DNA from: Proteobacteria bacterium SG_bin7
GTDB taxonomy: Bacteria > Bdellovibrionota > Bdellovibrionia > Bdellovibrionales > SG-bin7
DNA: 64,000 nucleotides
NCBI GenBank assembly: GCA_002083485.1
Contig: LWDK01000044.1
Location: forward strand, 12,613-76,612
Direction: 5' to 3'
Shown one piece after another: positions 5,187 through 30,271 of the stretch. Position 1 is the first letter of the stretch; every line of letters begins with the position of its first letter. The notes beneath the pieces are model-generated. The model was not told the origin of the DNA and did not search any database. It saw nothing but the letters and a program-made list of their open reading frames with translations. A program made the position numbers and the translations under genes.

Positions 5187-5819
5187 CTACTCAGACTTTA
5201 GGCCACTGTAACGATCATAGGTAGATTTAGAATCATCCGCTTGACTCTTCCATTTCTTGACTTCTTTTTGGTAAGAAGCTTGTTTTGAAATCCAATTGGC
5301 CCGCTCACCTTCTGTAGCCTTTACACGCAAATCAATTTGGGTTCTTAATTCTGCCACATTTTTTCGCTGCTGATCCCATTCCATTTTTTCTTGATCAATC
5401 TGAACCAAACGCTCCTGGTAAGCATGAATGTTTTCTTCGCGCTTCATTTTATTGGCTTGAAGTTTATTGACTGCCTCTTGAAGTTTAGCGAGCTGCTCCT
5501 CCTCATTTTTTAATTTTTTATTCTCTTCTTCGATATGGGTGCCAACAGTAACTTTCTGCTTATCAAGCTCTTTTTTGTTAGCCTCGATCTGCTTGTCACC
5601 AAGATTTAACTGTTTACGCTGCTCTTTAAATGTATTTATGGCCTTGTCGATCTCAGCAATATTCTTATCGACCCTATCAAGATTTTCTTTGTACTGGTCA
5701 TAGTTATGACTACTATTTTCAGCGTTGCTTTTTAATTGGTCGAGTTTTTTATCAACATCTGTTCGCGACCACGCCGTTAAGCTTATCAACGAAACCAAAA
5801 TTATTAATAAGTCTCTCAT
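5187..5819 (-). CDS. Exported coiled-coil protein, unknown function
   Basis: Signal peptide MRDLLIILVSLISLTAWS followed by K/E/Q-rich heptad-like sequence. It lies 9 nt downstream of the 823-aa ORF on the same strand. Confidence 0.55.
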   Translation of the reverse strand: MRDLLIILVSLISLTAWSRTDVDKKLDQLKSNAENSSHNYDQYKENLDRVDKNIAEIDKAINTFKEQRKQLNLGDKQIEANKKELDKQKVTVGTHIEEENKKLKNEEEQLAKLQEAVNKLQANKMKREENIHAYQERLVQIDQEKMEWDQQRKNVAELRTQIDLRVKATEGERANWISKQASYQKEVKKWKSQADDSKSTYDRYSGLKSE

Positions 5820-5828
5820 AAAATCCTC

Positions 5829-8300
5829 CTACAAACTCGCACTTTTTTTCTTATCTTTAGGACAGTTGTTCTCAAGCGACGACCTGAAATTACCAATTTC
5901 GTCTTCCCAAATTTCACCATCAAAATTCCAATTCATATTTTTCTGTGTGTCTTTAACATGTTTTGGCTTGGTCGCGGCTCCCTTTTCGCCTCCGGCAACC
6001 TCAAAACGAATATTCTCTCCGCTGCCAGCGTAAACCTCGTACTTTAATAACTCGTTGTTGGCAAAAATCTCGTCGAGCTCTTCCTTAACGGCTTTAAGTC
6101 TTTTTACCAAAACTTTTTCGGCACGTGACCTTTGGTCATTCTTCTTATTCACCGCTAGAGTCACGCCTTTAGATTTTAAATCACGAAAATTACTTTGAGC
6201 CTTTTTTACCATTTCGACTCGAAACTCTAAACTTCCAAGTCTCCTATTGACCGCGGCAAGCTGAGATTTCATCTCGTTTACCTCGATTGGACTCAATTGC
6301 AGCTCCCCTTTTGTATTGGGTGTTTTTGTCAGCTTCGCTGTTAAAGTCCGAGACTCATTTTTTAAATTCGCTATTTTTGTACCAATGCGATTTAAATCCC
6401 GGGCGAAAAAGTTTTCAACAAAACGCCATTGCTCCACTTCATCCACCATTTCATTAACCGCATTTTGGGCGTTAATAAAATCACGGTGTCTTGCCATCTC
6501 ACGCACAACCTGCATCGGTAGTCCGTCCACACTTATTAGATTTTGATTTAGCAAGTGCAATTTGACGGTGTCGTAGTATTTTGCCGGCGATTTGTGCTCC
6601 GTAATGTATTTGCTAATAGCTTGCGACCAACCCCCATGAATACGCTCAAACAGATTGATAGACTGAAAAGCATCACCATACTGACAGAGATTGATATAAC
6701 CAATCGTGCGCACGGCGAATGATTCTGGTTTATAAACCTTAGCAAATATATTTGTTTGCACACTGAACATATTTCCGATCGCCCCAGCCGGGTCATTACT
6801 CTGCAATTGCGCCCAACCCTGCTCAATTAAACCCTGAACCCATTGCGGATGATCTTTTTTTATTTTTAAAAAGGACTGACTGGCCTCAGCATATTGCTTA
6901 CTATTGTAATAGGTCCTCCCCATATTTAAATGCACCAGCGCTTCAATTTTATGGGGATCACCTTTTTTATTCAGATACGCAATTAAATTTTTTCCTGTTT
7001 CAATGCTGTCTTTGTTATTGCCCAGCAAAACTTCCGAACTAAAAACAATAAATTGCGCGCGCGTGTAGTACTCACTCTTTTCTGAAACTTTTTTTGCGTG
7101 ATTTAATGCGGACTCGGCGTTTCCATCATGAGCCGATACTTTTGCCAATAAAAAACTTATCGCGTCGTATGTAGATGCCGTTAAATCTTTAAACTTTTCT
7201 TTACCAGCTCGCACAATTTCTGCGACGTCATCTTCGAAGGCAAATTTAACGTTGTCAGCAATGGAGGTCATGGCTAATTTTCCGTATTCATCATCTTCGT
7301 TCTTGATGACCGCTCTCATATCATCAACATATTGAGCATACAAACCCATTTCTTTTTCGCATTTTCCCGCCAGATACTTTGCTTCGGCCGCGTATTGGCT
7401 TTTGTCTTTTACCGACTGTAGCAAACCAACCATGTTGTGACAGGACTTGTTGTCATCGTTGATCATGTAAGATGCGATCATTATTAATTCCGGCTCAGAG
7501 AGAGGTTTTGATTCTTTCTCGATAATTTCATTTGGTTGTGCCAGGGCATAGTTTACGGCATCAATCTTTTCTTTAGTAACTGGAAAATCGCCAGTTTTTA
7601 TTTTTGAAACGACAGCCTTTGCGTCCGCGACTTTTTCAATCACCTTGGGAATATTTGCCTCTGACTTTTTACGGTCAACTAAGTCTGGAGACGCAAGCGC
7701 CTTGAATGGTTTTAGTTTAATCGCTTTAAAATCGACTTTTTCACCAACAATATCACGTGCAGAAATTTTGTCCTCGGTTCCGATGTCAAGACGAGGAATT
7801 TCCTTTTTGATTTTTCCAATAACGACAACACCGGATTTGTTTCTCGTCAAGGTGCTGTCGCCCTTTCGACCGGCTTCAACGGCCATAGGCTTAGTTTCTT
7901 TGGCTTGACGTACCATTGCCTTAAGTTGTTCTGAAGTTGTACCCCGATCTTCAGACTCAACAATACTTTCGCGTACAGGCGCTGGACTTGGTTTTACTTC
8001 CGCCGCGGAAGTGGAAGTCGTTGGTGGCGAAGTTACTGCCGCCGTAGCAGTAGACACATCATTTGCGGGGCCTCGATTTTGCCCAGTTTGCCCGACTTGA
8101 GTTTTTGTTTCATCTTTTTTCTCATCTTTTTTCTCAAATAAATTATTTGCCCAGGTACGCACTTTCACTTCGATTTTTTTGGCTTGATTCTTAGCTCGAG
8201 TGACTAAATTACTCCAACGCGCCCCCCAACCTTCGTCGGCGAGAGCTGCGCTTGAAAAGCTCAATGCGCAAATGAAAATTACCAAACTAAGCTTTTTCAT
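5829..8300 (-). CDS. Large exported TPR-like / coiled-coil protein, distal member of the Agl/Glt-like cluster
   Basis: Signal peptide ...SFSSAALA|DEG, a P/T/S-rich spacer, a helical-repeat (TPR-like) central region and a C-terminal coiled coil. It lies 12 nt downstream of the OM barrel gene. Confidence 0.6.
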   Translation of the reverse strand: MKKLSLVIFICALSFSSAALADEGWGARWSNLVTRAKNQAKKIEVKVRTWANNLFEKKDEKKDETKTQVGQTGQNRGPANDVSTATAAVTSPPTTSTSAAEVKPSPAPVRESIVESEDRGTTSEQLKAMVRQAKETKPMAVEAGRKGDSTLTRNKSGVVVIGKIKKEIPRLDIGTEDKISARDIVGEKVDFKAIKLKPFKALASPDLVDRKKSEANIPKVIEKVADAKAVVSKIKTGDFPVTKEKIDAVNYALAQPNEIIEKESKPLSEPELIMIASYMINDDNKSCHNMVGLLQSVKDKSQYAAEAKYLAGKCEKEMGLYAQYVDDMRAVIKNEDDEYGKLAMTSIADNVKFAFEDDVAEIVRAGKEKFKDLTASTYDAISFLLAKVSAHDGNAESALNHAKKVSEKSEYYTRAQFIVFSSEVLLGNNKDSIETGKNLIAYLNKKGDPHKIEALVHLNMGRTYYNSKQYAEASQSFLKIKKDHPQWVQGLIEQGWAQLQSNDPAGAIGNMFSVQTNIFAKVYKPESFAVRTIGYINLCQYGDAFQSINLFERIHGGWSQAISKYITEHKSPAKYYDTVKLHLLNQNLISVDGLPMQVVREMARHRDFINAQNAVNEMVDEVEQWRFVENFFARDLNRIGTKIANLKNESRTLTAKLTKTPNTKGELQLSPIEVNEMKSQLAAVNRRLGSLEFRVEMVKKAQSNFRDLKSKGVTLAVNKKNDQRSRAEKVLVKRLKAVKEELDEIFANNELLKYEVYAGSGENIRFEVAGGEKGAATKPKHVKDTQKNMNWNFDGEIWEDEIGNFRSSLENNCPKDKKKSASL

Positions 8301-8312
8301 AAGCCTTACCCC

Positions 8313-9179
8313 TTAAAAGAAGTACGTTAAACCAAACAATAAGAAGCTTGAGTGAAACATTTCGTTGCGGAGTTCAGATCCCGTAGCAGCACCGCCACCA
8401 CCATTGCGATATTTCAGAACTTTTTGTTGTTGCCAGCGATTTTTGAAATCAATTCTTAAGGCAAATTCTTTCGACAAGAAAAACTGTTGACTGAAATCCA
8501 GAGCGTAGGCAATCGTGCTTTCCGTTTTATTCCCCACAGCAGGATCCACAAACTGTTCATAAGTTACCATTGCCAGACCTGGAGACACCGCGAAATCAAA
8601 ATACATAATTTTACTTCCAAGCAAACTTGCTTTCGCATAAATAGGAACAAAGTTATAGTTCACTCCTATTGCGTACTTGTCGCGATTCATATCTGGAAGC
8701 GCGCCGTTAGAAGTACTGAAGGTATCAACAAGAGTACTGTTTTTAAATGGATAGCTAGAGTAACTAACTTCTACACCGTGGCGTTCGTCAAAATAGTAGT
8801 TCACAGCGCTATTCACAAAAGTTCCAGAGCTGTAGCTATCGTTAGTGGGTAGTCCGGCCGACAGTGACAGCGAAACTCTCTTTGCTTTCGTATAAGTTCG
8901 ATTCTGCACTACGGTAAAATCGGTGTCTTGCGACGACCAATATTTTTCTTCCAGACCACTTACATCTAACTTTTCATCCTTACCAACGTTGGCTGCAGGA
9001 GCGCCCGCAGCTTTTTTGTCGGCAGGGGCACCTGGCGCAGGATTAGGATTTGCCGCCGCTTCCGCATTCGGTGCGGATTTCTTTTTTCTTTGATATTGTG
9101 ATGACTGCGCGAGCGCATCGCTGGTCATCATGTTGCAAATCAATAGCAGCACCACAAAAAACATATTCTGACGGCCCAT
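8313..9179 (-). CDS. Outer-membrane beta-barrel domain protein (GltH-like position)
   Basis: Signal peptide, Ala/Pro-rich spacer, alternating strand pattern and C-terminal ...LLFGLTYFF. Resembles the myxobacterial-type OM beta-barrel domain family. Confidence 0.65.
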   Translation of the reverse strand: MGRQNMFFVVLLLICNMMTSDALAQSSQYQRKKKSAPNAEAAANPNPAPGAPADKKAAGAPAANVGKDEKLDVSGLEEKYWSSQDTDFTVVQNRTYTKAKRVSLSLSAGLPTNDSYSSGTFVNSAVNYYFDERHGVEVSYSSYPFKNSTLVDTFSTSNGALPDMNRDKYAIGVNYNFVPIYAKASLLGSKIMYFDFAVSPGLAMVTYEQFVDPAVGNKTESTIAYALDFSQQFFLSKEFALRIDFKNRWQQQKVLKYRNGGGGAATGSELRNEMFHSSFLLFGLTYFF

Positions 9180-9212
9180 AGGCTATCCTTTCCTTAAGAA
9201 TTACCAACTGTA

Positions 9213-10841
9213 TTAGTTAGTGCTCTTAAATAAAAACGGATACGAAACAAGCACGGTTGTTCCCCCTTTTGGAGTTGGAAACACCCAGCTTGCAACACGC
9301 TTCAGAATACATCCTTCGACTACAGCGTCTTGTAAGGTTGAAGATCCAATCTTTGATTGGACGACAGAACCCGTCGCACCAATCGTAAACTGTACTTTTA
9401 TTTTCCCATATAAATCTGGTTTCGCGCTCAACTGGCGCTCATAGCAATAACGAATATGGCCAATTTGAGTACTAATGAATTGCGAAATCACTTCGCGATC
9501 CAAACCACCTTCGACATCAGTTTCTTCATCAATCGTGGCGACATTTCCGGTACCAACACTACCCGGAGTCAAAGCGCCGTAAGTTCTATAGGAACTTGCG
9601 CCACCAGCACCGACTGTACCAACACCACCGATTTTATGTGTGCCGCCACCACCAGTACCCGTTCCCGTACCTACACCAACAGCACCAAGTCCAGTACCCT
9701 TACCAACATTAGCGAGACCAGCGACAGCAACTGCACCTGCAGGAATTCCACCAGTTACGTTATTATTATCAGTATTGTTTACCCGCACCAACGTGCCAGA
9801 CGTTGTTCGCTTTGATAGTCTTCCTATTAAACCGCCGAGATTGGCTGCTTTGATAGACCGAATTGCCGCTTGTCCACCGCCAGCCGCCTTACCGTTACCA
9901 CCAGCAGGACCAAGTCCTGGAGCAAGATCATAACTTAGATTCTTCCCACTCGGATTTTTTGTCGGTGACAAAATGTCTACGGGTGAATTTGGGTTTGGGT
10001 TTGGACCCATCGGCTTACCACGATTTATAATAGACGCCCCGAGTTTCTCAGCTTTAGCTATTTTCTTCTTAACAACTTTCGCGTCATAAATCATTTGTGT
10101 GTAAGGATTTAACTCCTTGGGAATCTCAACAACTACTTCTTCTTTTTTGTCAGTACTGCCGTAAGGAATGGAGAGCGCTCCGATTAAAACCGCCATCGTC
10201 ACCATAGCACCGATTAAACTTCGACGAATATCTTCTGGAAAGAATTCTTTCCAGGTATCGGGTTTATAATTATTTCGGCGGGCCAAACCCACCAAGCGCT
10301 GTTGAATCGTCAAATTACCAAACTCGTGCCAAACCCACTGTTTTGTTTTGGGTGCTGGCAATGACTCTCTTTTTATTCCATAACCAAAGTCATAGTTTGC
10401 ATTCGCTGGTAAAAAAATTGTTTCTACCACATGACCTTTTTGGCGTACGACAACTTGATGGGCAAGTTCGTCAGACCTTGAACTGTTGATATCTCTTTCT
10501 TCCTTTTGGAAAAGCACTCGTCTTACTTCATGAGGACGCACATCAATCGTATGCCCGCAAATTTCAAATTTCATCGGGCCAGTGATTTTATGTTCCACAA
10601 TATCGGTTTTTTTCTGTTCGCTATCCATTGAGCCCTTAATCGAACCAACATCACTGACATACCAAGCATCCTCACGAAAATCGATAATGGCATGAATACC
10701 CATGACATTGTCGCCCAACAAACGAAAATCAGCGTCACGCGACGATCCCACCGTAAAATAGCGATTACCCGGACGCAGATGGCGTTGCTTTAAAAATTTA
10801 TTTTGGTGTCTATGTTCGACCTTTAATTGTACGCTCTTCAT
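9213..10841 (-). CDS. FHA domain / single-TM / Gly-rich linker / AgmX-PglI (TonB-C-like) C-terminal domain protein (GltG/PglI-like)
   Basis: FHA-like N-terminus GSSRDADFRLLGDNVMGIHAIIDFREDAWYVSDVGSIKG. TM segment LIGAMVTMAVLIGALSI. G/T/V low-complexity linker. C-terminus IRYCYERQLSAKPDLYGKIKVQFTIGATGSV...VSYPFLFK is typical of the AgmX/PglI tail. Confidence 0.7.
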   Translation of the reverse strand: MKSVQLKVEHRHQNKFLKQRHLRPGNRYFTVGSSRDADFRLLGDNVMGIHAIIDFREDAWYVSDVGSIKGSMDSEQKKTDIVEHKITGPMKFEICGHTIDVRPHEVRRVLFQKEERDINSSRSDELAHQVVVRQKGHVVETIFLPANANYDFGYGIKRESLPAPKTKQWVWHEFGNLTIQQRLVGLARRNNYKPDTWKEFFPEDIRRSLIGAMVTMAVLIGALSIPYGSTDKKEEVVVEIPKELNPYTQMIYDAKVVKKKIAKAEKLGASIINRGKPMGPNPNPNSPVDILSPTKNPSGKNLSYDLAPGLGPAGGNGKAAGGGQAAIRSIKAANLGGLIGRLSKRTTSGTLVRVNNTDNNNVTGGIPAGAVAVAGLANVGKGTGLGAVGVGTGTGTGGGGTHKIGGVGTVGAGGASSYRTYGALTPGSVGTGNVATIDEETDVEGGLDREVISQFISTQIGHIRYCYERQLSAKPDLYGKIKVQFTIGATGSVVQSKIGSSTLQDAVVEGCILKRVASWVFPTPKGGTTVLVSYPFLFKSTN

Positions 10842-10856
10842 ATTGTCCTCAATGCC

Positions 10857-11099
10857 TCAATGGATATATTCCAACGACTCTTTGACGCCATCGTTAAGTT
10901 TCTTTTTTACTTTATACATGGGCGCAAACTCCATTCCACGCTTCTGCACTAAATATGATCCATCAGGACTTCTTACTTTACCATTTACGTCCGTATCGCC
11001 AAAATCCACTCGCTGTACTTTTCCAGTTTTAGTCCCTTCTGCACTTACAGTTGCTGACATAAAACTAATGATGATGAAAGACAAAATTAGGAATCTCAT
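10857..11099 (-). CDS. Small exported protein (GltF-like position)
   Basis: 80 aa with a signal peptide (...SATVSA|EG). Its start overlaps the stop of the upstream TPR gene by 4 nt (translational coupling). Confidence 0.5.
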   Translation of the reverse strand: MRFLILSFIIISFMSATVSAEGTKTGKVQRVDFGDTDVNGKVRSPDGSYLVQKRGMEFAPMYKVKKKLNDGVKESLEYIH

Positions 11100-11983
11100 C
11101 TTTTACCTCCCGCGACTTTACGAGTTGTTTTGATTAATTTCTCTAACTCCTGAATTCGCTTCTGAAGCTGGTTTTTGTTATCTGAGTTTATTAATAAATT
11201 TTGATACTCTAAAAGAGCTTCCTCGTAGCGCTGAAAGACAGTTTCAAGCACGACAGCCCTTTCGTAACGAGCCTCAAAGTCTTTTTTATCTTTTGCAACA
11301 ACTCTGTCAAAAAAATCCAGCGCAAGTTTTGGGTCACCATTGACGACCATACATCGAGCTGCCCCCAGTAGTGCATCTCGGTGGAATGGAACGAATTTCA
11401 AAACATTGCGAAAACTTCTTTCTGCTGCCACGTAATTTCCTGAGCGTAAGCGAATTTGAGCGATGAATAGATCTGCTTCGTACAGACCAGAATCAAGCTT
11501 CAAAGCTTTTTCAAATTCAGCCATCGCCATATCCGTTTCGTTGTTCTTTAAGTAGATTCGCCCGCGCTGGTAGGGAAAAAGAGCTAAGCTTTTGTCTTTT
11601 TCACTTGCCTGCTCGAGCATCCAAAACGACCGCGTCACATCACCACGCGCATCCGCGCTCAAACTCATAAAGTAAAATCCCCATGGGGCCGTCGGAAAGC
11701 TATCCGCCAGGTGCTGACCAATGAACTCAACGCTACTCCACTTTTCTTTCGCCGCACAAGCCGCTCCCAACTCTAAGTGTTCGCGCCAAGTTCTGTTTTC
11801 GACTTCTTTAACATTCAACGGGCACTTTTTATTCGATTCGCGGGCCAACTGTGCGGCCGATATATTGATTGCTTCTACGGTGAAGCTTTTGCCAGCAAGC
11901 TGCGGGTCTTTACTCATAAGCTGCGGATTAGTGACGCAGCCAACTCCCAATAAAGCAATGAAACTCACCCTTAATGTCTTCAT
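11096..11983 (-). CDS. TPR-repeat lipoprotein (GltE/AglT-like)
   Basis: Signal plus lipobox LLGVGC. TPR-like repeats (YQRGRIYLKNNETDMAMAEFEKALKLD..., AQIRLRSGNYVAAERSFRNVLKF). 4-nt overlap with the upstream gene. Confidence 0.6.
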   Translation of the reverse strand: MKTLRVSFIALLGVGCVTNPQLMSKDPQLAGKSFTVEAINISAAQLARESNKKCPLNVKEVENRTWREHLELGAACAAKEKWSSVEFIGQHLADSFPTAPWGFYFMSLSADARGDVTRSFWMLEQASEKDKSLALFPYQRGRIYLKNNETDMAMAEFEKALKLDSGLYEADLFIAQIRLRSGNYVAAERSFRNVLKFVPFHRDALLGAARCMVVNGDPKLALDFFDRVVAKDKKDFEARYERAVVLETVFQRYEEALLEYQNLLINSDNKNQLQKRIQELEKLIKTTRKVAGGKR

Positions 11984-14937
11984 GTGCTCACCTCACGCAA
12001 TTTCGGTAGCACTAAACTGGGTGGAGTTACTCGGATATTAAATTGAGGAACGGTTGAATTTTGAGCGCGATTTAAAGCTTGACGCAATTCTTCAGCAGTA
12101 TTGTCACTTAATCCTGCCTTAGCAGCCTGACTTACGCCAGAACTTAAAGTACCAAGCCCCTTATCTTCAATTGGAGAAGCAAGCTCCTCGAGCTGGGCAC
12201 GAAAGGCTTTTTCGTCTTCTGCGCTTGTACCTTCAGGAGTCTCGATTCCGCGAACTGACTGAGCAAAGTGAAGATAACTTTCTCCTAAACGCTTTAGCGC
12301 CATTAAACCCACTTTTGTATGCCCCATCTTTATCACCGACTCATACGCGCTCTGAACTTTTTCTAAGCGTTGGGTTTTTAATTGAATCACCAAAGCCAAT
12401 CTCTCTGGTTTCGCTTTTAAACTTTGATTTTTAAATTCTTCCTCTAAAACAATACCCTGATAGTATCTCGCCATGGAACGTACGTAATTTAGATCTGCAC
12501 CGTTCATTCCTAAAATTCTTTTAGCAGTATCGAATGCTTTACCGTAATCTCTACGGTCCATTTCATCCTCTAACTGGGTCAAAGTGATTTGGCCTAATAA
12601 CGGTTGGATCCCATGACTTACTATTATACCCTGCACCTTTCTCAAATTGCCTTTTGCACCCATAGACTTTTCCATAACAAACCATCGGCCAACAACTTCA
12701 CCATCCACACCTTTACTGTTTTTTACATGCTTTTCGTATAGCCTTCGCGCTGTATCTTTATTTTCTGAGATCGAGAAGAAATTTGCTGCCATCAACTCCC
12801 ATTTACGCCCTTCTTTTGGATCACGCTTCGCCACATCTAAAAGTACGGCGCCAGCCTCTTGAACACGACCTGTTTTTTCGAATGCTTGTGCAGACCGCAA
12901 GAGAACATCTTTGGCATTTTTGTCATCAGGATATTGGTTTACATATTGATGACCTTGAGCCGCTGCCTCGTAAAACTTTCCGGTTTTGTAGTACAACTCG
13001 ATCGCATTCCACCATGCACGACTTGCCAGCGGAGACTTCATATTTTGCTTGGTGAAGACTAAATACTCCGCAATTGCTTTCTCCAAATTGCCCTTTTCTT
13101 CCATAACCTGAATCTCTGCAAAATAAGATTCATGGTAAATTTTTGTTAATTTCTCTTTTCTTTCTGAGTTGTTCTCCTTAGCTGCTAGGTTCTTAGAGTA
13201 CCCCTTCAGTTCGGTAAAAGACTTTTCTTTGTTGTAAATGTCCATTAGCAAATCTTGGGAACGGTTTGCTAACTCCACATTTTCTTTTTGTGTTCCAATC
13301 TCGCTAAACATTTTTTTGGCTTCGACAAAATTATTCTGAGTAAAGGAGATAAATCCAATTTTATATTTAGTATCAATAACGAATTTGCCTTTGGGACTTC
13401 CCCGAAAATATACGCCCGCTAAATTTTTAAATAGTTTTGTATCGACGTCATTCCAGGACTTATCCCCAACGGCTTTCTCAAGCGCCACAAGTGCCCCGTA
13501 GCCAGCATCGTGGCGCAGCTTTTCGTCCTTACTTTCGCTGTTGGCAACAAGCGCATAGTTTTCACTGGACTCACGAAATTTTTCGTTTTGAAAAAGTAAC
13601 TCGGCAAAGTTAAATCGCATCGGATTTAGACTGTCTGTTGATTTCGTGCCGTCAAGGTACAGTCTATAGGCCGCTTCTGCCGCAACTGACAATTCTTTAA
13701 ATTGTTGTTGCTTTCGCCACATGCGATGCCATTTTGTAGCAAGTCGCAGACTTGTTTCGTCAAAAATCCCACGACAGTCAAGATCCGCCGTAATTGTAAA
13801 CCCTTTTGAAATGTCTTCTAGTTTATTGTCTTTGTGTGCTTGTGACCATCTACTGTTGGGTCTACAAATTTCGTGAAAGTTCTGTAGCTCGCGAACGGCC
13901 AGCGTTCTATCCTTTAGAGTTTCGTAATTGTTTACCAACTCCATATATGCCGTAGCTAAATATACAGATTTTGGAGAATTATTTATGAGATCATGGAGAA
14001 CAACAGACAAATCTCGGTAACGACTATGCGCCTTGTAAAGCTCGGTCAGACGCAGTAGTACAGGAGCAACACCAAACGCTCCCGCAGGTTTTCTGAAATA
14101 TGAGTAAGCTTTTGCCGCGGGATATACATCTTCGAAGAACAAAGCCATATCTTCGAGAGCTTCTTTTCTTAAATCAAGTCGCGAGTCCTGCCCCTCACGC
14201 TGAGCTTTTTCACCGAATTCCACAAGTGTTTCAAGTTCGCTTAATCCCGCCTTTGCATCTCGCAAGTTATAGTGGGTCCATGCCGTTTTATATAGTCCGT
14301 AAGGATAAACGCGTGATTCAGGAAACTTTTTTATGTCATTAAAATACTTTAAGGCTTTCTCGAAGTTTCGCTCTTGAAAAAACATTTCCCCCACAGAAAG
14401 ATAGGCATCTGGAATGGCCCCAGACTCGGGGTATTCCATGATTAGTTTATTAAACAAGATTTTTGCTTTGCTGTGGTTATCAATACCTTGATTAGCAAAG
14501 CCATTATTAAATAAAACCATGTCCATTTGCTCGTAGCGCGGAAACTGACGACCTATATGATCGTAAATCTCAATGGCATTATGAACTGCCGCCTTCTCGG
14601 TTGCTTTTTTACCAAAGTTAGGAAGTATGTCCCTGATTTTATCATTTGACTTATTGAGCTCAAAAAAGCGATTTGACTTAGCCTGACGCATATACAATTC
14701 CGCTTTTCTAAACAAAAGATCGGCCTCCATCGAAGTGCCACGCTTTTGCTTTAAAAGCTTATCTAATTGAGCCATCGCCCGGGCCTCCGTGGCCTTGACT
14801 AACATTTCTGTTTTCAACGCACGGACATCCTGCGCATCATCGCCAGGATTACCTTTAAGCTCTTTCATAACGGAACTATCTTTAGCATTGGCTTTAGCAA
14901 ACCCGCAAAAAATAACTCCCAATAAAATCAGTTTCAC
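11980..14937 (-). CDS. Large periplasmic TPR-repeat protein (GltD/AgmU-like)
   Basis: 985 aa with signal peptide ...FAKANA|KD and helical TPR-like repeats throughout. It sits immediately after the two ExbD-like genes and before the GltE-like gene, as gltD does in M. xanthus G1. Confidence 0.6.
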   Translation of the reverse strand: MKLILLGVIFCGFAKANAKDSSVMKELKGNPGDDAQDVRALKTEMLVKATEARAMAQLDKLLKQKRGTSMEADLLFRKAELYMRQAKSNRFFELNKSNDKIRDILPNFGKKATEKAAVHNAIEIYDHIGRQFPRYEQMDMVLFNNGFANQGIDNHSKAKILFNKLIMEYPESGAIPDAYLSVGEMFFQERNFEKALKYFNDIKKFPESRVYPYGLYKTAWTHYNLRDAKAGLSELETLVEFGEKAQREGQDSRLDLRKEALEDMALFFEDVYPAAKAYSYFRKPAGAFGVAPVLLRLTELYKAHSRYRDLSVVLHDLINNSPKSVYLATAYMELVNNYETLKDRTLAVRELQNFHEICRPNSRWSQAHKDNKLEDISKGFTITADLDCRGIFDETSLRLATKWHRMWRKQQQFKELSVAAEAAYRLYLDGTKSTDSLNPMRFNFAELLFQNEKFRESSENYALVANSESKDEKLRHDAGYGALVALEKAVGDKSWNDVDTKLFKNLAGVYFRGSPKGKFVIDTKYKIGFISFTQNNFVEAKKMFSEIGTQKENVELANRSQDLLMDIYNKEKSFTELKGYSKNLAAKENNSERKEKLTKIYHESYFAEIQVMEEKGNLEKAIAEYLVFTKQNMKSPLASRAWWNAIELYYKTGKFYEAAAQGHQYVNQYPDDKNAKDVLLRSAQAFEKTGRVQEAGAVLLDVAKRDPKEGRKWELMAANFFSISENKDTARRLYEKHVKNSKGVDGEVVGRWFVMEKSMGAKGNLRKVQGIIVSHGIQPLLGQITLTQLEDEMDRRDYGKAFDTAKRILGMNGADLNYVRSMARYYQGIVLEEEFKNQSLKAKPERLALVIQLKTQRLEKVQSAYESVIKMGHTKVGLMALKRLGESYLHFAQSVRGIETPEGTSAEDEKAFRAQLEELASPIEDKGLGTLSSGVSQAAKAGLSDNTAEELRQALNRAQNSTVPQFNIRVTPPSLVLPKLREVST

Positions 14938-14939
14938 TT

Positions 14940-15449
14940 CTATTCTCCACTTAAACTAGCTAATTTCACATTCGCGAAGCCAGCCGAGGTCGCTGTGTAC
15001 ATGACTTGACGAATTACTTCGTAATTTAATCTCGCATCTGCAAGCACAACTACTTTACCGTCGAATTCAATTGTTTCGTTTACTTTTGCTATCTTTTTTG
15101 AGTTTTCAGCTTCCTTATCAAGCTCATCATATAGGGCAGGAATGAATAATTTATCTTTTGGGTCGAGCACACTAGCTGGCAGCCTTCCATTTTCAACGTC
15201 CGCGACCTTCTTATCGCCAACAAAAATTCCTTTTTTACTAACTGTCAGTTTCAACGCTTCAACGGGACTTCCGTTGGTTGTGCTGACTGGTAAATCTAAA
15301 CCCTCAATAGGAGTAATTTGTGTTGCGCTCATCGATTGCTGGTTCAATAAGAAGGCGAGAAGTATCGTCATCATATCGCACATCGAAGTTACTTGAACCA
15401 CAAACGTGCTTTTCTTGTTATACTTTCGCATCGTCTCTAAAATATTCAC
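14940..15449 (-). CDS. ExbD/TolR family biopolymer-transport protein (AglQ/AglS-like)
   Basis: Short cytoplasmic N-terminus, then VQVTSMCDMMTILLAFLL, the ExbD/TolR TM signature with conserved Asp, then a periplasmic domain. Abuts the next ExbD gene with no gap. Confidence 0.7.
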   Translation of the reverse strand: MNILETMRKYNKKSTFVVQVTSMCDMMTILLAFLLNQQSMSATQITPIEGLDLPVSTTNGSPVEALKLTVSKKGIFVGDKKVADVENGRLPASVLDPKDKLFIPALYDELDKEAENSKKIAKVNETIEFDGKVVVLADARLNYEVIRQVMYTATSAGFANVKLASLSGE

Positions 15450-15998
15450 TTAGCCCTCCAACACGTTTCCGAAAAAGATATCAACAAACAAATAAGGAGA
15501 TTCGACTTTCTCATTAGTTTTGGGATCCACCACATGAAGCTTTGGATCTCCTTCTTTGAGTTTTCGCGCACTATCCATAATTTTTATAATATTGTCGTAT
15601 GGAACATCATCCGTTGGCCGAAGTTCCAAGCGAAAAACCATCGGATTCGCAGTCTTAAACTCTACAAGCTCTTTATGAAGTGCCACATAATCAAAGTCAT
15701 TATTTACAAGGTTAATTACCTTCTTCGACAATTGACCATTATTAGTCACCTCTAAAATAAATCCTTGAGATTTGCTAACCTCTAACTTCACACTCGTTTT
15801 CGGCGTTTCATCTTTGCGTTCTTGCTGAACTGCCTCGTTAATAATTTGAGGAAGCTGAGTTTCGATGACTCCAATGCGAATAAACACCGCTGTTGCTAAA
15901 AATATAGGAACAAGCGCTACGACCACTGACAAGACGGGGGCCAAGTCGAGATCGAATGTTTCATCTTCATTTTTATAGAACGCAAAATCTTTCGCCAT
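15450..15998 (-). CDS. ExbD/TolR family biopolymer-transport protein (AglQ/AglS-like)
   Basis: DLDLAPVLSVVVALVPIFLATAVF TM segment plus a periplasmic domain. Lies 4 nt after the MotA/TolQ gene. Confidence 0.65.
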   Translation of the reverse strand: MAKDFAFYKNEDETFDLDLAPVLSVVVALVPIFLATAVFIRIGVIETQLPQIINEAVQQERKDETPKTSVKLEVSKSQGFILEVTNNGQLSKKVINLVNNDFDYVALHKELVEFKTANPMVFRLELRPTDDVPYDNIIKIMDSARKLKEGDPKLHVVDPKTNEKVESPYLFVDIFFGNVLEG

Positions 15999-16002
15999 AA
16001 AA

Positions 16003-16743
16003 TTAAACCGCCTTTAATTTTCCCGGGGGTGGAGGGGATTTCCGACCAGTTCCATTACCGCCACCATTTCCCTCTTCGTTCGGATACACAGAATTTACAT
16101 GAAAAGGCTGATAATGGCGCGTGGACAGCCAGTCTACGAGCTTCGATGAGTTCTCAATAATTTCTTCAAAATGCTTGTTCTGTCTTGCAAACAAAAATGA
16201 ATAAACAATCATTGCGGGAATCGCGATCATCAAACCAAACGCGGTCGTGTACATCGCCATCGAAATACCTTGAGTCAAAATTAATTGTTTTTGGGCTGGG
16301 TCAGCTTTGGCAACGGCCGCAAATGCCATGATTAGACCTTGAATAGTACCTAGTAGCCCAAGAAGAGTACAAACGTTCGCAATCATCGAGAGGTAACCCA
16401 AGCGTTTGCCAATGAGAGGCATTACCTCAGCAATAGCAATTTCCTGGCCCTTTTCTATAGACTCGTCATCGCGGTCTGATCTTTCTAAAATCTTTTTAAT
16501 AACCGCAACAAGGGGAATTTTTTCTTTTCCTGCACAATGAGTTACGGCTTCCTCTATTTTATCAGATTGTACAAGGCTGCGAATATTACTCATAAATTCA
16601 TTCGCATTTATCGCATAATTAAAATAAAGAGCTTTGACTCTGTCTGCGACGACAACAATCGCCATAAAGCCCATCACTACAATCAAGTACCCGGCAAAAC
16701 CGGCATCATGTATCGACTTTAAACCTTCTCTCAAATGTTCCAT
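16003..16743 (-). CDS. MotA/TolQ/ExbB proton-channel family protein (AglR-like)
   Basis: Three TM segments and the conserved GLLGTIQGLIMAFAAV motif. Gly/Pro-rich C-terminal tail. Confidence 0.85.
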   Translation of the reverse strand: MEHLREGLKSIHDAGFAGYLIVVMGFMAIVVVADRVKALYFNYAINANEFMSNIRSLVQSDKIEEAVTHCAGKEKIPLVAVIKKILERSDRDDESIEKGQEIAIAEVMPLIGKRLGYLSMIANVCTLLGLLGTIQGLIMAFAAVAKADPAQKQLILTQGISMAMYTTAFGLMIAIPAMIVYSFLFARQNKHFEEIIENSSKLVDWLSTRHYQPFHVNSVYPNEEGNGGGNGTGRKSPPPPGKLKAV

Positions 16744-16762
16744 ATTATTGACCCCCTTAATC

Positions 16763-17725
16763 CTACTTAGTTCCTATTGGTTGATAAAAAATATCTATTT
16801 TTACATCCGTGCGAGCTATCGCGTTTCCGTGTAATTGAATGCTGTTGTCGGCTGCGATGTAAGTCCAGCCATTAACCGGATCATTTGGAATTTTGTTACC
16901 GTTAATTAGAACCTCAATCGAAGAAACATCTGGTACGCGATCTAAATAAAAACGAGAAGCGGTGTCATAAATTCTCTTTTCAACGCCCGCCAAAGCTGCA
17001 CTAAAATCGCCCGTGCAAATTGTAGTTTTAGCACCACCAGAATTATCAACTAACTGCATGTAGCGATAACCTGGCTCAGTATAGTTTCCATATGTAGAAC
17101 AATTTTCTCCCGCGGCACCGGTTACACCAATCATATGAAAAACCCAATTTCTCTCGCCAATGGGAGTGCGTGGTTTAATTGTGTCCAGAAAACTAATGTA
17201 GTCGCTGGGATTACCCGGACTGCCGTCATCTTCGTTCGTTACAACAATAACCACCAACAATGCATCACTACGAAAAAAACCAGTATTTGTTGAACTACGC
17301 AACTCAAGTGCTCGCTTCATCCCACCTAAACCTTGTTCTAAGTCATAGGCCGCTTCGGCAACGGTGATTTTTTGATTAAATGCAGCAGCTATGTTAGGAG
17401 TCGATTTGGTAAGTACCGCAGGGCTTCCGATAAATTTTCCCTCAGTTCCTCCAGAGCGCATATCAACTGTCGTGGCGGCGATTCTAAAATCAAGGTTACG
17501 AGATAAAAGTCCGTTCAAGAAGGCACCTGATTTTTGTGCGAGCACAGTCTGGTGCTGGGCCATACTTGGTGTGTTGTCGATGACCCAAAGAATGTCGACT
17601 TTATTGTTCCATGTGATACTCGATGAATGACTTTCACTGGCCGGTGCCAACAAGAATGCTTGTTGTTCGCACGCGCTCAAGAAAACCGCCGCGATCACAA
17701 AAAATATTCTTGCCATTTTTAACAC
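16763..17725 (-). CDS. von Willebrand factor A domain lipoprotein
   Basis: GTG start preceded by AGGAG. Lipobox FLSAC. vWA core DILWVIDNTPSM (MIDAS-like DxTxS) and LLVVIVVTNEDD. Confidence 0.65.
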   Translation of the reverse strand: MLKMARIFFVIAAVFLSACEQQAFLLAPASESHSSSITWNNKVDILWVIDNTPSMAQHQTVLAQKSGAFLNGLLSRNLDFRIAATTVDMRSGGTEGKFIGSPAVLTKSTPNIAAAFNQKITVAEAAYDLEQGLGGMKRALELRSSTNTGFFRSDALLVVIVVTNEDDGSPGNPSDYISFLDTIKPRTPIGERNWVFHMIGVTGAAGENCSTYGNYTEPGYRYMQLVDNSGGAKTTICTGDFSAALAGVEKRIYDTASRFYLDRVPDVSSIEVLINGNKIPNDPVNGWTYIAADNSIQLHGNAIARTDVKIDIFYQPIGTK

Positions 17726-17849
17726 GCGTACACTCCTAAGTTAGTTAATAACTCATTGCTCGGAGCGTACATTCACAGGTTAGAGCAAACGGGAACCAAA
17801 CCAATTATAATTTTAAATACAATAGCCTACTTCTTTACTTCCTTTGTCT

Positions 17850-18653
17850 TTATGCGGCCTTCTTGGCGTACTCCGCAAATTCAGTGACAAAGCCTTTTGC
17901 TTTTTCACCAATATTCGTAAATTTCACACCATAGTGAATAGATTGTTCTTTATGTTTAATGCCCTTTAGGAAACGTTTCGATACAACTTCACAAACAGCA
18001 TTAAACGGCGGAACACCATCACCGGGCTTAAAATGTAAAAATAGAGTCTGACCAGGGATGATCATTGAATTCTCAATAACGAGACCTGCACCGCCAGCGC
18101 TTATTTCTATACTCTGACCCTTCCAAACTTGTTTATTGTCGTGAACGATAATTGACCCATCAAATTTTGCACGCTTATGGCGACGACGAAAAAAGAGCTC
18201 GCTGACGCCTTTTTCTCCTGAATTTTTGAGATCACGAATTTTATCGGCCTTAAACTCGTCGACTTCGGCAACCCGTTGCCAGGTGGCCATTCCACTTCGC
18301 CACACGTATTCATATTCAAAAAGGGATTTTTCCTGAAGCATTTTAACAACATCAGTAAATGAAAATGGACCATAGCGGTTTTCGCCTTTGAGCGTATACC
18401 ATTCCTGTTCGCTATTTTCGGCAACGGGGGAGGTAATCTCTGATTTCATAGGTTTAGCAATTTTGGGAGTTGAATGTTTGGCTGTCTCACTTAAAGGTTC
18501 AAAGTCGACCACAGAAACCCAATCAGATTTTGACTCTAAGTAGATAAAATCGCTCGGCGCCATTTCGCCACCCCTTAATTTCCCCTCGACCTCTTTAACG
18601 CTAAAAGGCCCCTGCTGCTGACCATTTATATAGACATAGAACTGTGTTTGCAT
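17850..18653 (-). CDS. Tandem GYF_2 domains + C-terminal PilZ domain protein (putative c-di-GMP receptor)
   Basis: Two GYF_2-like repeats (FYVYINGQQQGPFSVKEV...SDWVSVVDF and EWYTLKGENRYGPFSFTDV...GMATWQRVAEVDEF). PilZ motifs RRRHKR (RxxxR) and EISAGGAG ((D/N)xSxxG-like). Confidence 0.7.
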   Translation of the reverse strand: MQTQFYVYINGQQQGPFSVKEVEGKLRGGEMAPSDFIYLESKSDWVSVVDFEPLSETAKHSTPKIAKPMKSEITSPVAENSEQEWYTLKGENRYGPFSFTDVVKMLQEKSLFEYEYVWRSGMATWQRVAEVDEFKADKIRDLKNSGEKGVSELFFRRRHKRAKFDGSIIVHDNKQVWKGQSIEISAGGAGLVIENSMIIPGQTLFLHFKPGDGVPPFNAVCEVVSKRFLKGIKHKEQSIHYGVKFTNIGEKAKGFVTEFAEYAKKAA

Positions 18654-18825
18654 AAACCTATCCCCTTTGTCTCTCTCTCTGGACTATCGGGAGGTCGAGG
18701 CACAGACTTTAGTAAATAAATCTAGACAAACCTTGTGAATCTTTGAAGTTTTGTGGAACTAATTGACGTTTTCTCAATTTGAAATAGTTACATGGTATAT
18801 TAAATCTCATTATAGTACGAAGAGT

Positions 18826-18903
18826 TTAATACGATTGGAAATTATGATTCAGTGCGTGTATCTTGTCATTGTTGCAGCGATAGGCATTTAAATTATTTTT
18901 CAT
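18826..18903 (-). CDS. Candidate 25-aa mini-ORF (MKNNLNAYRCNNDKIHALNHNFQSY)
   Basis: Hand-translated. The ATG is preceded by AAAGGAG with a 4-nt spacer, directly after a long hairpin. There is no other support. Confidence 0.2.
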   Translation of the reverse strand: MKNNLNAYRCNNDKIHALNHNFQSY

Positions 18904-18915
18904 GATCTCCTTTAA

Positions 18916-18967
18916 CGAACGAAGCCGGCGCGCAACTCATGGGGGGTACGCGCCCCGGTTTCGTTCG
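18916..18967. terminator. Long GC-rich hairpin downstream of the prolyl oligopeptidase gene (probable terminator, possibly bidirectional)
   Basis: CGAACGAA-GCCGGCGCG ... CGCGCCCCGG-TTTCGTTCG. The outer 8 bp are perfectly complementary and the inner GC stem has a bulge. On the plus strand it is followed by GTTTTCTC; on the minus strand it is followed directly by an SD. Confidence 0.5.
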
Positions 18968-18992
18968 GTTTTCTCAAAACGAGAAGAAGACC

Positions 18993-29326: not shown

Positions 29327-30271
29327 TTACGAAGATTTATGTTTCGTTGTTTGATTTCTACCGTTATTTTTTGACCGATACAAAGCCTCGTCAGCAGCTT
29401 TAAATAAATCATCCCACCCGGCCATAGTTGCGCTTTTTTCAGCTACGCCTAATGAAATCGTAATAGGAAGTTTTTTACCTTCATATTCAAAAACATGGGT
29501 TTGTACCGCCTGACGAGCGCGTTCCGCAATATCGGCTCCTTGCTGTAAATTACTACCGTGGAGAATCACAACAAATTCTTCACCACCGAAGCGTGCAAAG
29601 AAATCATCGCCGCGAATCACTTTGGCTTTCACAAGGTCCGCAAGGGTTTTTAACACGTAATCTCCGGCCAAGTGCCCAAAGTTATTATTCACCTGCCTGA
29701 AGTGATCTAAATCAAACGCAATCGCCGTCAAAGGAAATTGCATTAGTCCCGATCGTTTAAATGCCTCTTTACCATGCTCCAAGAGAGCTGCCTTATTAAA
29801 TATCTGTGTGAGCCCATCGATTTGGCCACGATCATATGTGCTCTTTGTAGTCATGGATTCAATGTTACCGCTCTCTAAAAATTTAAAGATGACATTTCCA
29901 GTCTTTATCTGATCATTGTTTTTCAATTTTACCAGAGTAAGTGGTGGCACAACTCTTCCGTTAATGACAGTTTTATTTGTCGACTCTAAATCCATTATGG
30001 AAACTTCTTTTCCAGAAAACACAACCTTGGCGTGTGACTTACTAACACTTTTATCGTCGACAAACACGTGCGAGCGCGGGTCTCTACCAACAACAACGTC
30101 TCCCGCCGTAAGCGGCCACTGCTTACCAATGTAAGAATTAGGACCGACCAATAATACTAAACTCGGAGGAGCATTCGTCGCTTCAGCGAGACGACCTTTG
30201 AAGGTGTCACTCGAGATAACGCTTGTCTTATCTCCCGCTGTTATTTCGTCGTCTTTAGGATCTTCGCTCAT
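29327..30271 (-). CDS. FHA domain-GGDEF diguanylate cyclase (DgcB-like architecture)
   Basis: FHA region VVVGRDPRSHVFVDDKSVSKSHAKVVF...STNKTVINGRVV. GGDEF domain with active site RFGGEEF, I-site RGDD and the canonical base-specifying Asp (FGHLAGDYVL). Confidence 0.85.
   Translation of the reverse strand: MSEDPKDDEITAGDKTSVISSDTFKGRLAEATNAPPSLVLLVGPNSYIGKQWPLTAGDVVVGRDPRSHVFVDDKSVSKSHAKVVFSGKEVSIMDLESTNKTVINGRVVPPLTLVKLKNNDQIKTGNVIFKFLESGNIESMTTKSTYDRGQIDGLTQIFNKAALLEHGKEAFKRSGLMQFPLTAIAFDLDHFRQVNNNFGHLAGDYVLKTLADLVKAKVIRGDDFFARFGGEEFVVILHGSNLQQGADIAERARQAVQTHVFEYEGKKLPITISLGVAEKSATMAGWDDLFKAADEALYRSKNNGRNQTTKHKSS

Follow-up and report, generated by a model that had tools for sequence, protein, structure and literature searches.

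Which machine do the minus-strand genes at 5187-18653 of this stretch of DNA encode, and would it move the cell over a surface? The stretch is a 64,000-nucleotide (nt) part of the 118-kb contig LWDK01000044.1 from Proteobacteria bacterium SG_bin7, and its full length is called the window in the following. An original prediction, made from the letters alone, had described eleven of these genes as an Agl/Glt-type cluster with an aglRQS-like motor set upstream of a gltD-E-F-G-barrel block, a description borne out by the NCBIfam models for GltG, AgmX/PglI, CglF, GltE and OMP_myx_plus. We conclude that 5187-18653 is probably a 12-gene operon for an envelope-spanning Agl/Glt machine of the Bdellovibrionales type, corresponding to Bd1473-Bd1483 of Bdellovibrio bacteriovorus. 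The cluster joins the Myxococcus xanthus locus M1, most of G1 and part of G2 end to end, not G1 and M1 only. The most likely function would be surface gliding driven by the proton-motive force with a MIDAS adhesin (named for its metal-ion-dependent adhesion site) and gated by a cyclic dinucleotide, as suggested by analogy with known systems.

The proteins were searched against the Pfam and NCBIfam profile libraries using the curated NCBIfam cut-offs, and structures predicted with AF2 were compared by Foldseek. All features of the cluster described below lie on the minus strand.

Probable twelve-gene operon and related loci

The coordinates and lengths of the eleven open reading frames (ORFs) of the original prediction were reproduced and its domain labels hold; independent deposited gene calls on the source contig gave identical lengths for all 11 ORFs. 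The proteins of 542, 985 and 320 amino acids (aa) are 100% identical to the SG_bin7 hypothetical proteins A4S09_04425, A4S09_04440 and A4S09_04460, respectively. From the 320-aa gene to the 210-aa gene, the distances between neighbours are 19, 4, 0, 2, -4, -4, 15, 33, 12 and 9 nt. By this spacing the predicted gaps of 0-33 nt were right, and the "several" 4-nt overlaps are real but number exactly two. The MotA/TolQ-like protein has three transmembrane (TM) segments, each of the ExbD-like proteins and the 542-aa protein have one, and the remaining proteins of the 11-gene set carry signal peptides or lipoboxes, a topology that fits an envelope-spanning assembly.

A twelfth gene had been overlooked, which lies 124 nt upstream at 17850-18653 and encodes two GYF_2 domains and a PilZ domain. 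The unit was extended to 5187-18653 because this GYF-PilZ gene sits in the cluster in all 56 related loci whose upstream region could be checked, at the head in 53 and internally in 3. The promoter of the 12-gene unit is likely to lie in the intergenic region 18654-18992 (339 nt), in which the best sigma-70-like match on the minus strand (18869-18841) agrees at 10/12 positions. Promoter-like sites in this region are no commoner than in shuffled sequence and give weak evidence for a promoter. Since a scan for promoters and terminators gave counts equal to those of shuffled sequence, the operon boundaries are set by spacing and synteny only. The region upstream was also scanned for riboswitches, because cGAMP (cyclic GMP-AMP) is said to affect gliding-gene transcripts; no Rfam riboswitch or leader RNA was found at the gathering threshold in the window, and none at E <= 1 in 17600-19100.

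To collect related loci, one genome per species was scanned with an alignment of GltG-like proteins, which gave 272 relatives, and 80 loci were kept. All 80 were from Bdellovibrionales/Pseudobdellovibrionaceae genomes, B. bacteriovorus Bd16 among them, and tblastn with the window proteins found the same gene order throughout. Dozens of Bdellovibrionales genomes show this order again, with protein identities of 25-80%, which puts the arrangement far beyond chance. The full form seen in the window (GYF-PilZ, MIDAS lipoprotein, AglR, two ExbD, GltD-, E-, F- and G-like proteins, barrel, GltC-like protein and coiled coil) was found in 11 loci (L001, L003, L017, L045, L049, L051, L052, L057, L060, L061 and L079). 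The window shares flanking peptidase, flippase-like and RecO genes with L001, and flippase-like and RecO genes with L003. The other forms are clusters without the lipoprotein, clusters without the motor, and a short form, in which GYF-PilZ, motor and GltG-like genes are followed by opposite-strand genes. The motor-less form runs from GYF-PilZ directly to the block from the GltD-like gene to the coiled coil (L013, L015, L023, L024, L029, L040-L042, L046, L047 and L071), while the motor-only form holds GYF-PilZ, AglRQS-like and GltG-like genes (L026, L032, L033, L038, L050, L054, L056, L058, L064, L067, L072, L075 and L078). Each reduced architecture has its own GltG-like and PilZ genes.

For the Bd1473-Bd1483 cluster we used Luciano 2011, Hobley 2012, Lowry 2022 and the 2024 MIDAS study of Bd0875 and Bd1483. 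Bd1474-Bd1481 were assigned in turn to GltC, GltB, GltG, GltF, GltD, AglS, AglQ and AglR (Luciano 2011, Table S3), and they form one of four 'expanded core' Agl/Glt sets in B. bacteriovorus (Luciano 2011). The window cluster is regarded as the counterpart of Bd1473-Bd1483, since the ORF lengths of the Bd16 locus L073 match those of Bd1474-1481, and the PilZ gene Bd1482 and the MIDAS gene Bd1483 stand at the 5' end.

Motor, transducer, scaffold and outer-membrane proteins

The AglR-like proton-channel subunit (246 aa, 16003-16743) belongs to the MotA/TolQ/ExbB family (PF01618 MotA_ExbB, 1.5e-23; ExbB model, 6e-16; TolQ model, 5e-15) and contains three hydrophobic TM segments. Directly downstream are two different ExbD/TolR-like genes in the order R-Q-S, as in MXAN_6862-6860. 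The subunit at the AglQ position (182 aa, 15450-15998) matched PF02472 at 2.2e-14 and that at the AglS position (169 aa, 14940-15449) at 1e-13, each with one TM segment. The B. bacteriovorus counterparts of the three proteins, Bd1481, Bd1480 and Bd1479, were assigned to MXAN_6862, MXAN_6861 and MXAN_6860, respectively (Luciano 2011, Table S3).

The two stator subunits of ExbD/TolR type are unlike each other, and only the one at the AglS position keeps a protonatable TM Asp here. This residue, Asp25, is an invariant Asp in 43 of 43 orthologues. The AglQ-position protein has Ser24 in place of the TM Asp, and the column reads D in 19, A in 17 and S in 6 of 42 orthologues; we take it to be the position of TolR Asp23. 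The residue is Ala or Ser in 22 of the 28 other full clusters, B. bacteriovorus included, and Asp in 13/13 loci that hold only the motor and the GltG-like gene. Since D28 of AglQ is essential in M. xanthus, a Ser at this position is odd.

The GltG-like transducer (542 aa, 9213-10841) consists of a cytoplasmic FHA domain (6.7e-5, 23.7 bits, cut-off 20.7), one TM segment at about residues 205-227, a Gly/Pro-rich periplasmic linker (residues 229-446, 58% G/P/A/S/T/N) and a TonB-C-like end. It matched the NCBIfam GltG model NF033760 at 1.2e-43 with 149.6 bits, under the equivalog cut-off of 650, and the AgmX/PglI C-terminal domain NF033768 at 2.5e-31 with 107.6 bits, for which the cut-off is 40. 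Direct interaction of GltG with AglR has two-hybrid evidence in M. xanthus only (Luciano 2011).

The GltD position is held by an exported tetratricopeptide repeat (TPR) scaffold of 985 aa (11980-14937). Its AF2 model (pLDDT 85.9) is an all-alpha solenoid with TPR-like pairs between long N- and C-terminal helices and with both ends disordered; M. xanthus GltD has been described with such an architecture, and the 985-aa protein is encoded directly upstream of gltE-F-G. Foldseek on the model returned generic TPR scaffolds only, with low TM-scores. No NCBIfam family named GltD matched the protein or 8 orthologues at E <= 1, and the library may hold none; a large protein search with the 985-aa query gave Bdellovibrionales TPR proteins only and reached no Myxococcus GltD. 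The protein is about 30% identical to a B. bacteriovorus protein whose HD100 equivalent is Bd1478, and Bd1478 was assigned to MXAN_4870, GltD (Luciano 2011, Table S3). Residues 605-708 form a YbgF/CpoB-type TPR module (TIGR02795, 1e-25, 90.6 bits, cut-off 90.1), and the YbgF model also matched 9 of the 9 orthologues tested at E <= 1 (best 4.6e-30). This module on the GltD-like scaffold preserves a trace of the whole machine's Tol-Pal ancestry.

The next gene encodes a TPR lipoprotein at the GltE position (295 aa, 11096-11983), which was matched by TPR families at up to 1.8e-13. The match of the GltE model NF033758 (9.2e-6, 24.9 bits, cut-off 225) ranked behind those of six other TPR families. 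A Cys follows the N-terminal hydrophobic segment in 8/8 orthologues inspected, and the strict lipobox pattern was found in 35 of 52. The GltD-like and GltE-like genes are separate in the window with a 4-nt overlap and form a single 1244-aa ORF in B. bacteriovorus; fusion ORFs of about 1245 aa lie at 5975-9709 of L073 (B. bacteriovorus Bd16) and at 5862-9605 of L074, from a related metagenome-assembled genome (MAG). The GltE model was not among the matches of the fused B. bacteriovorus proteins. Because of this fusion, no GltE homologue is listed for Bd1474-1481 in Luciano's table. Between the gltE- and gltG-like genes a small exported protein with a signal peptide is encoded (80 aa, 10857-11099). 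Its sole NCBIfam match is CglF, which is GltF (NF033764, 4.7e-6, 26.5 bits, cut-off 90, covering 61 of the 88 profile positions), and its 82-aa counterpart Bd1477 was assigned to MXAN_4868 (Luciano 2011, Table S3).

The outer-membrane (OM) beta-barrel (288 aa, 8313-9179) carries a signal peptide, ends in ...TYFF and belongs to the OMP_myx_plus family (TIGR04565, 1.7e-22, 80.2 bits, cut-off 60). It is followed by an exported GltC-like TPR/coiled-coil protein with a signal peptide (823 aa, 5829-8300), of which residues 394-670 match positions 253-542 of the 622 positions of the GltC model NF033756 (3.8e-25, 88.7 bits, equivalog cut-off 450); judged by this match, the protein is clearly homologous to GltC. 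The order barrel then GltC is that of G2. The counterparts Bd1475 and Bd1474 were assigned to MXAN_2539, GltB, and to MXAN_2541, respectively (Luciano 2011, Table S3). GltB and GltC, for which the original prediction had seen no equivalents, therefore both have a relative in the cluster.

The conserved last gene encodes an exported coiled-coil protein with an N-terminal signal-like sequence (210 aa, 5187-5819). Its profile matches are generic coiled-coil only, and in at least 39 of 45 loci a homologue adjoins the GltC-like gene. A role in anti-phage defence was considered as well, since systems such as Zorya have MotA/B-like proteins too, and was rejected; PADLOC gave only non-specific coiled-coil matches, to this 210-aa protein.

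The second gene of the operon encodes an OM lipoprotein with a MIDAS/vWA domain (320 aa, 16763-17725), a candidate surface adhesin. It has the lipobox LSAC and a MIDAS motif; in this protein and its relatives, the lipobox Cys19, D50-x-(S/T)52-x-S54 (T52 in the window) and D167 are invariant. In the AF2 model (pLDDT 83), a Rossmann-like domain comes first and a small, beta-rich C-terminal domain (residues 258-313) second. The top Foldseek matches were integrin beta-I and vWA domains, with E about 1e-8 and TM-scores of only 0.37-0.44; the sequence had no match in the PDB, and the fold comparison alone is informative there. In NCBIfam, the Bdellovibrio MIDAS adhesin model (3.5e-16) and CglD (2.2e-7) matched, both partially and far below cut-off. 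No model named CglB matched, hence the likeness to CglB is of kind only and homology is not claimed. CglB is the precedent for a vWA/MIDAS lipoprotein as gliding adhesin in Myxococcus, and Bd1483 is described in the 2024 MIDAS study as a lipobox MIDAS protein from a surface secretome study with a C-terminal beta-rich domain. By analogy, the 320-aa lipoprotein is a candidate for a CglB-like role with the Bd1483 architecture. Its gene is present in only some of the related clusters.

The closest B. bacteriovorus homologues of the first two proteins of the operon are encoded by a stand-alone pair (L081 and L082, 9183-10987; CP020946 near 792 kb). They are 44% (GYF-GYF-PilZ) and 41% (MIDAS lipoprotein) identical to the window proteins, and the pair adjoins a CheX-type response regulator away from glt genes. 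Since such a pair exists there, the PilZ and MIDAS-lipoprotein genes behave as a mobile module. A 367-aa VWA lipoprotein-like protein, 33% identical to the 320-aa protein (E 1.4e-30), was also found in an Archangium sp. MAG (L083, 10001-11104), where no glt genes adjoin it and the CglD model matches weakly.

Head gene, proposed function and rival explanations

The head gene encodes a cytoplasmic GYF-GYF-PilZ protein of 267 aa with no TM segment, matched by Pfam GYF_2 in two stretches (7.9e-21) and by PilZ (3.1e-12). The only PDB sequence match of the first GYF domain is 7Z3C, the GYF domain of GltJ/AgmX (6.2e-5), and the NCBIfam GltJ model matched at 4.7e-9; a GltJ-type domain is thus encoded next to the eleven genes, and the statement that no GltJ equivalent occurs has to be corrected to this extent. 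In the PilZ domain, R157xxxR161 is invariant in 57/57 sequences, and a second motif, E183-x-S185-x-G-G188, is conserved with E in 46, Q in 6 and D in 2. Among 1.84 billion proteins the family is a small one, with 110 representatives at E <= 1e-30 and 306 at E <= 1e-10; the taxonomy look-up returned almost no names, with a single 'Bdellovibrionota'. Judged by its domains, the GYF-GYF-PilZ protein probably serves the machine as a receptor or adaptor for a cyclic dinucleotide.

The PilZ gene Bd1482 was noted at the 5' end of the Bd1474-1481 operon, and it was proposed as receptor of DgcA (Bd0367), a GGDEF protein that controls Bdellovibrio gliding (Hobley 2012). In M. xanthus, the GYF domain of GltJ binds a proline-rich segment of AglZ. 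Bdellovibrio is without GltJ, and B. bacteriovorus is without GltH, I, J and K (Luciano 2011). A tentative and rather unlikely proposal is that in Bdellovibrionales a small GYF-(GYF)-PilZ protein, encoded at the head of every Agl/Glt cluster, replaces the MglA/AglZ/GltJ platform as effector of a Bd0367-type GGDEF protein, switching gliding on post-translationally. In such a scheme the GYF domains would dock on a proline-rich cytoplasmic element, and the signal would be cyclic di-GMP (c-di-GMP) or Hypr-made 3',3'-cGAMP. If true, this would be a nucleotide-gated clutch on a MotA-family stator, opposite in sense to the YcgR brake.

One candidate for the proline-rich element would be the PPxP tail of the AglR-like protein. 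The tail (16003-16050) contains SPPPPGKLKAV, the sequence ending ...RKSPPPPGKLKAV, and a 'PP' motif lies within the last 16 AglR residues in 26 of 29 full clusters versus 0/12 loci with only motor and GltG-like genes. Because of the latter count, and because the motor-less clusters still keep the GYF-PilZ gene, the tail was ruled out as a universal GYF partner and kept as one candidate.

The window holds two genes of diguanylate-cyclase type besides the PilZ-headed cluster. A 338-aa GGDEF protein (32648-33664, minus strand), about 15 kb from the Agl/Glt cluster, has the active site GGDEY and the sequence NDQHGHIIGS; no Pfam family matched its N-terminal 175 aa. The Ser of NDQHGHIIGS presumably stands at the position of PleD Asp344, which we take to be the Hypr GGDEF signature of 3',3'-cGAMP makers, as in the gliding regulator Bd0367 (S214). 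A 314-aa FHA-GGDEF protein (29327-30271, minus strand) has GGEEF and the canonical Asp, an architecture that we take to be that of B. bacteriovorus DgcB (Bd0742), the controller of prey entry.

From the gene content, order, homology, topology and conservation given above, we infer protein contacts, a gliding output and nucleotide control, modelled on the Myxococcus system, as follows. The AglR-like protein and the two different ExbD/TolR-like subunits would form the inner-membrane stator, in which proton flow would be turned into movement, and the movement would be passed to the single-pass, TonB/TolA-like GltG protein. The linker and TonB-C-like domain of the latter may engage the scaffold of GltD-like and GltE-like TPR proteins, and the GltF-like protein may bridge it to the GltC-like protein, which would dock beneath the GltB-like OM barrel. 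The barrel would hold the MIDAS/vWA lipoprotein gripping the substratum, so that motor work would become surface gliding. The GYF-GYF-PilZ protein would sense c-di-GMP or a related dinucleotide and would replace GltJ, AglZ and MglA as on/off or assembly input.

Gliding is favoured by the Group A genes for GltF and the GltB-like barrel, both present in the cluster; it is by these genes that the 'expanded' sets of deltaproteobacteria differ from the core, of unknown function, in non-gliders, and they were found only in Myxococcales and Bdellovibrionales (Luciano 2011). In addition, bd1480 is induced on surfaces and has lower expression in non-gliding bd0367 mutants (Lowry 2022).

Several points weigh against a gliding machine of this type. 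The profile searches linked the AglR, AglQ/S, GltG, GltC, GltF/CglF and OM-barrel positions to the Agl/Glt families, but the GltE assignment of the 295-aa protein is weak, judged by its profile score, and that of GltD is indirect, coming from position, predicted architecture and the published Bd1478 assignment and not from a profile. Every match to a myxobacterial equivalog model is well under its curated NCBIfam cut-off, so the cluster proteins are homologues, not equivalogs. No genes for GltI, GltK, full-length GltJ, MglA, MglB or AglZ were found in the cluster or the 64-kb window, and those of the remaining window ORFs that were scanned for other glt, mglA and romR genes matched housekeeping or signalling families only, or nothing. 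In place of the barrel pair or trio (GltA, GltB and GltH), the cluster has a single barrel gene, and the rest of the window has none. The second PilZ motif is E-x-S-x-x-G, not D/N-x-S-x-x-G. The bd1483 deletion left predation normal, and a gliding test of the mutant is not reported in the passages of the 2024 MIDAS study that deal with it, the word 'gliding' being confined there to the reference list. No mutant in a Bdellovibrio Agl/Glt cluster was shown to lose gliding, and the caution that an assignment to gliding is not automatic was fair for this reason; a 2026 review still calls the gliding machinery of Bdellovibrio unidentified. Besides Bd1474-81, the four paralogous sets of B. bacteriovorus include Bd0828-0838, Bd2369-2377 and Bd3598-3601, and Luciano 2011 favoured Bd0828-0838 for gliding, not Bd1474-81. 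The source organism is an uncultured MAG.

Since the evidence bearing on function is thin, a non-locomotive role is a real alternative, though on balance a doubtful one. The cluster would then encode the same kind of machine as a paralogue that does not move the cell and serves prey attachment, entry or exit, or the transport of a surface polymer, like the Agl-Nfs spore-coat system of Myxococcus. The Glt-like Nfs paralogues of M. xanthus are indeed not for motility, and such copies do not substitute for G1, G2 and M1. In Bdellovibrio there are four sets without functional assignment, another of which was preferred for gliding by Luciano 2011, and the lipoprotein at the head of the cluster belongs to the MIDAS family in which Bd0875 acts in prey invasion (2024 MIDAS study). 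However, the passages of the same study on bd1483 report wild-type predation of its deletion and no induction of bd1483 by prey contact, bd1480 is surface-induced and dependent on the gliding regulator Bd0367, and the full diagnostic set of Luciano 2011 for potential gliders is present except for the second barrel.

Two further readings are unlikely, since the cluster holds Group A genes and families specific to Glt and lacks TolB and Pal. A divergent Tol-Pal/TonB-type system for envelope integrity, division or uptake, unrelated to motility, is highly improbable. In its favour, the best scores of the motor proteins are with TolQ/ExbB and TolR/ExbD models, the 985-aa protein carries a YbgF/CpoB module just above cut-off and the 542-aa protein a TonB-C-like end, and some sources name homologues 'TolA-binding protein'. 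Yet all TolQ, TolR, ExbB and ExbD equivalog scores are far below cut-off, profile scans of the cluster found no genes for TolB, Pal or a TonB-dependent receptor, and it is Glt families (GltG, GltC, CglF and OMP_myx_plus) that are matched specifically, in Myxococcus gene order. The cluster also encodes a pair of different ExbD-like subunits, a transducer with an FHA domain, a PilZ protein and a MIDAS lipoprotein, none of which is known as a part of Tol-Pal. Equally remote from the evidence is an ancestral core complex of AglRQS and GltDEGC with no role in motility, as in Gammaproteobacteria, Geobacter and Fibrobacter. One operon holds all seven core genes, an arrangement shared with those organisms, but the Group A genes for GltF and a GltA/B-type barrel are in the cluster too, and each of the 80 related loci is from a Bdellovibrionales genome.

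Comparison with known systems

The comparative value of the gliding-type operon proposed here is that regulator, adhesin, motor, transducer, periplasmic scaffold and OM barrel stand in one tidy 12-gene unit. The PilZ gene and the coiled-coil gene are its constant parts, the MIDAS lipoprotein gene is variable, and the GYF domain ties the PilZ protein to GltJ; asymmetric stator subunits and modular variants also belong to the comparative picture. For the gliding motor, adhesin and regulator of Bdellovibrio, the cluster offers a short list of candidate genes and residues: PilZ R157/R161, MIDAS D50, the equivalent of the AglS-like Asp25 and the AglR tail.

From AglR to the last coiled-coil gene, the B. 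bacteriovorus cluster agrees with the window in gene content and order, with protein identities of 28-46%, ORF lengths that match the Bd16 locus L073 and the HD100 table, and a PilZ and a MIDAS lipoprotein gene at the 5' end. The order at the head differs, being PilZ then MIDAS in the window and MIDAS then PilZ in B. bacteriovorus, and the PilZ protein has two GYF domains in the window (267 aa) and one in B. bacteriovorus (205 aa). The PilZ and MIDAS proteins of the window are closer to the separate B. bacteriovorus pair (44% and 41%) than to those of the B. bacteriovorus cluster itself.

With the Agl-Glt focal-adhesion gliding system of M. xanthus (M1, aglRQS; G1, gltD-J; G2, gltK-B-A-C; and the adhesin CglB), the window shares homologues of AglR/Q/S, GltG, GltC and GltF, a barrel of the GltA/B/H family, and the G1 order D-E-F-G-barrel with TPR proteins where GltD and GltE stand. 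It also shares an OM lipoprotein of vWA/MIDAS type, as CglB is, and a GYF domain resembling the one in GltJ. M. xanthus has three loci and three barrels, whereas the window has one operon and one barrel; its GYF domain is on GltJ, whereas that of the window is on a soluble PilZ protein. The M. xanthus sequences are too distant for the window proteins to reach any equivalog cut-off. The core AglRQS-GltDEGC complex of Gammaproteobacteria, Geobacter and Fibrobacter likewise has the seven core genes in one operon, and the window goes beyond it with GltF, the OM barrel, the MIDAS lipoprotein, the GYF-PilZ protein and the coiled-coil protein. Of the extra gene of those cores (Luciano 2011) there was no sign in the window, where no search was aimed at it.

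Tol-Pal (TolQ-TolR-TolA-CpoB/YbgF) has in common with the window a MotA/TolQ channel, TolR-like subunits, a TonB/TolA-like transducer with a single membrane pass and a scaffold bearing a YbgF-type TPR module. This fits a common ancestry and a contact between GltG and GltD resembling the one between TolA and YbgF. The cluster differs in lacking TolB and Pal and in having an FHA domain, partners specific to Glt and two TolR-like genes distinct from each other. Control of the flagellar stator by PilZ proteins of the YcgR type is a functional analogy. By this analogy, the product of the PilZ gene adjoining the machine would probably act on it, a machine with a MotA-family stator, but the domain partner is PilZN/YcgR-N in YcgR and GYF in the window. 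The direction of control is probably opposite to that of YcgR, since DgcA is needed for gliding. The cluster is a further example of a known system, the sets of which have been catalogued since 2011, and the conserved head gene for a putative c-di-GMP sensor is the only mildly new point.

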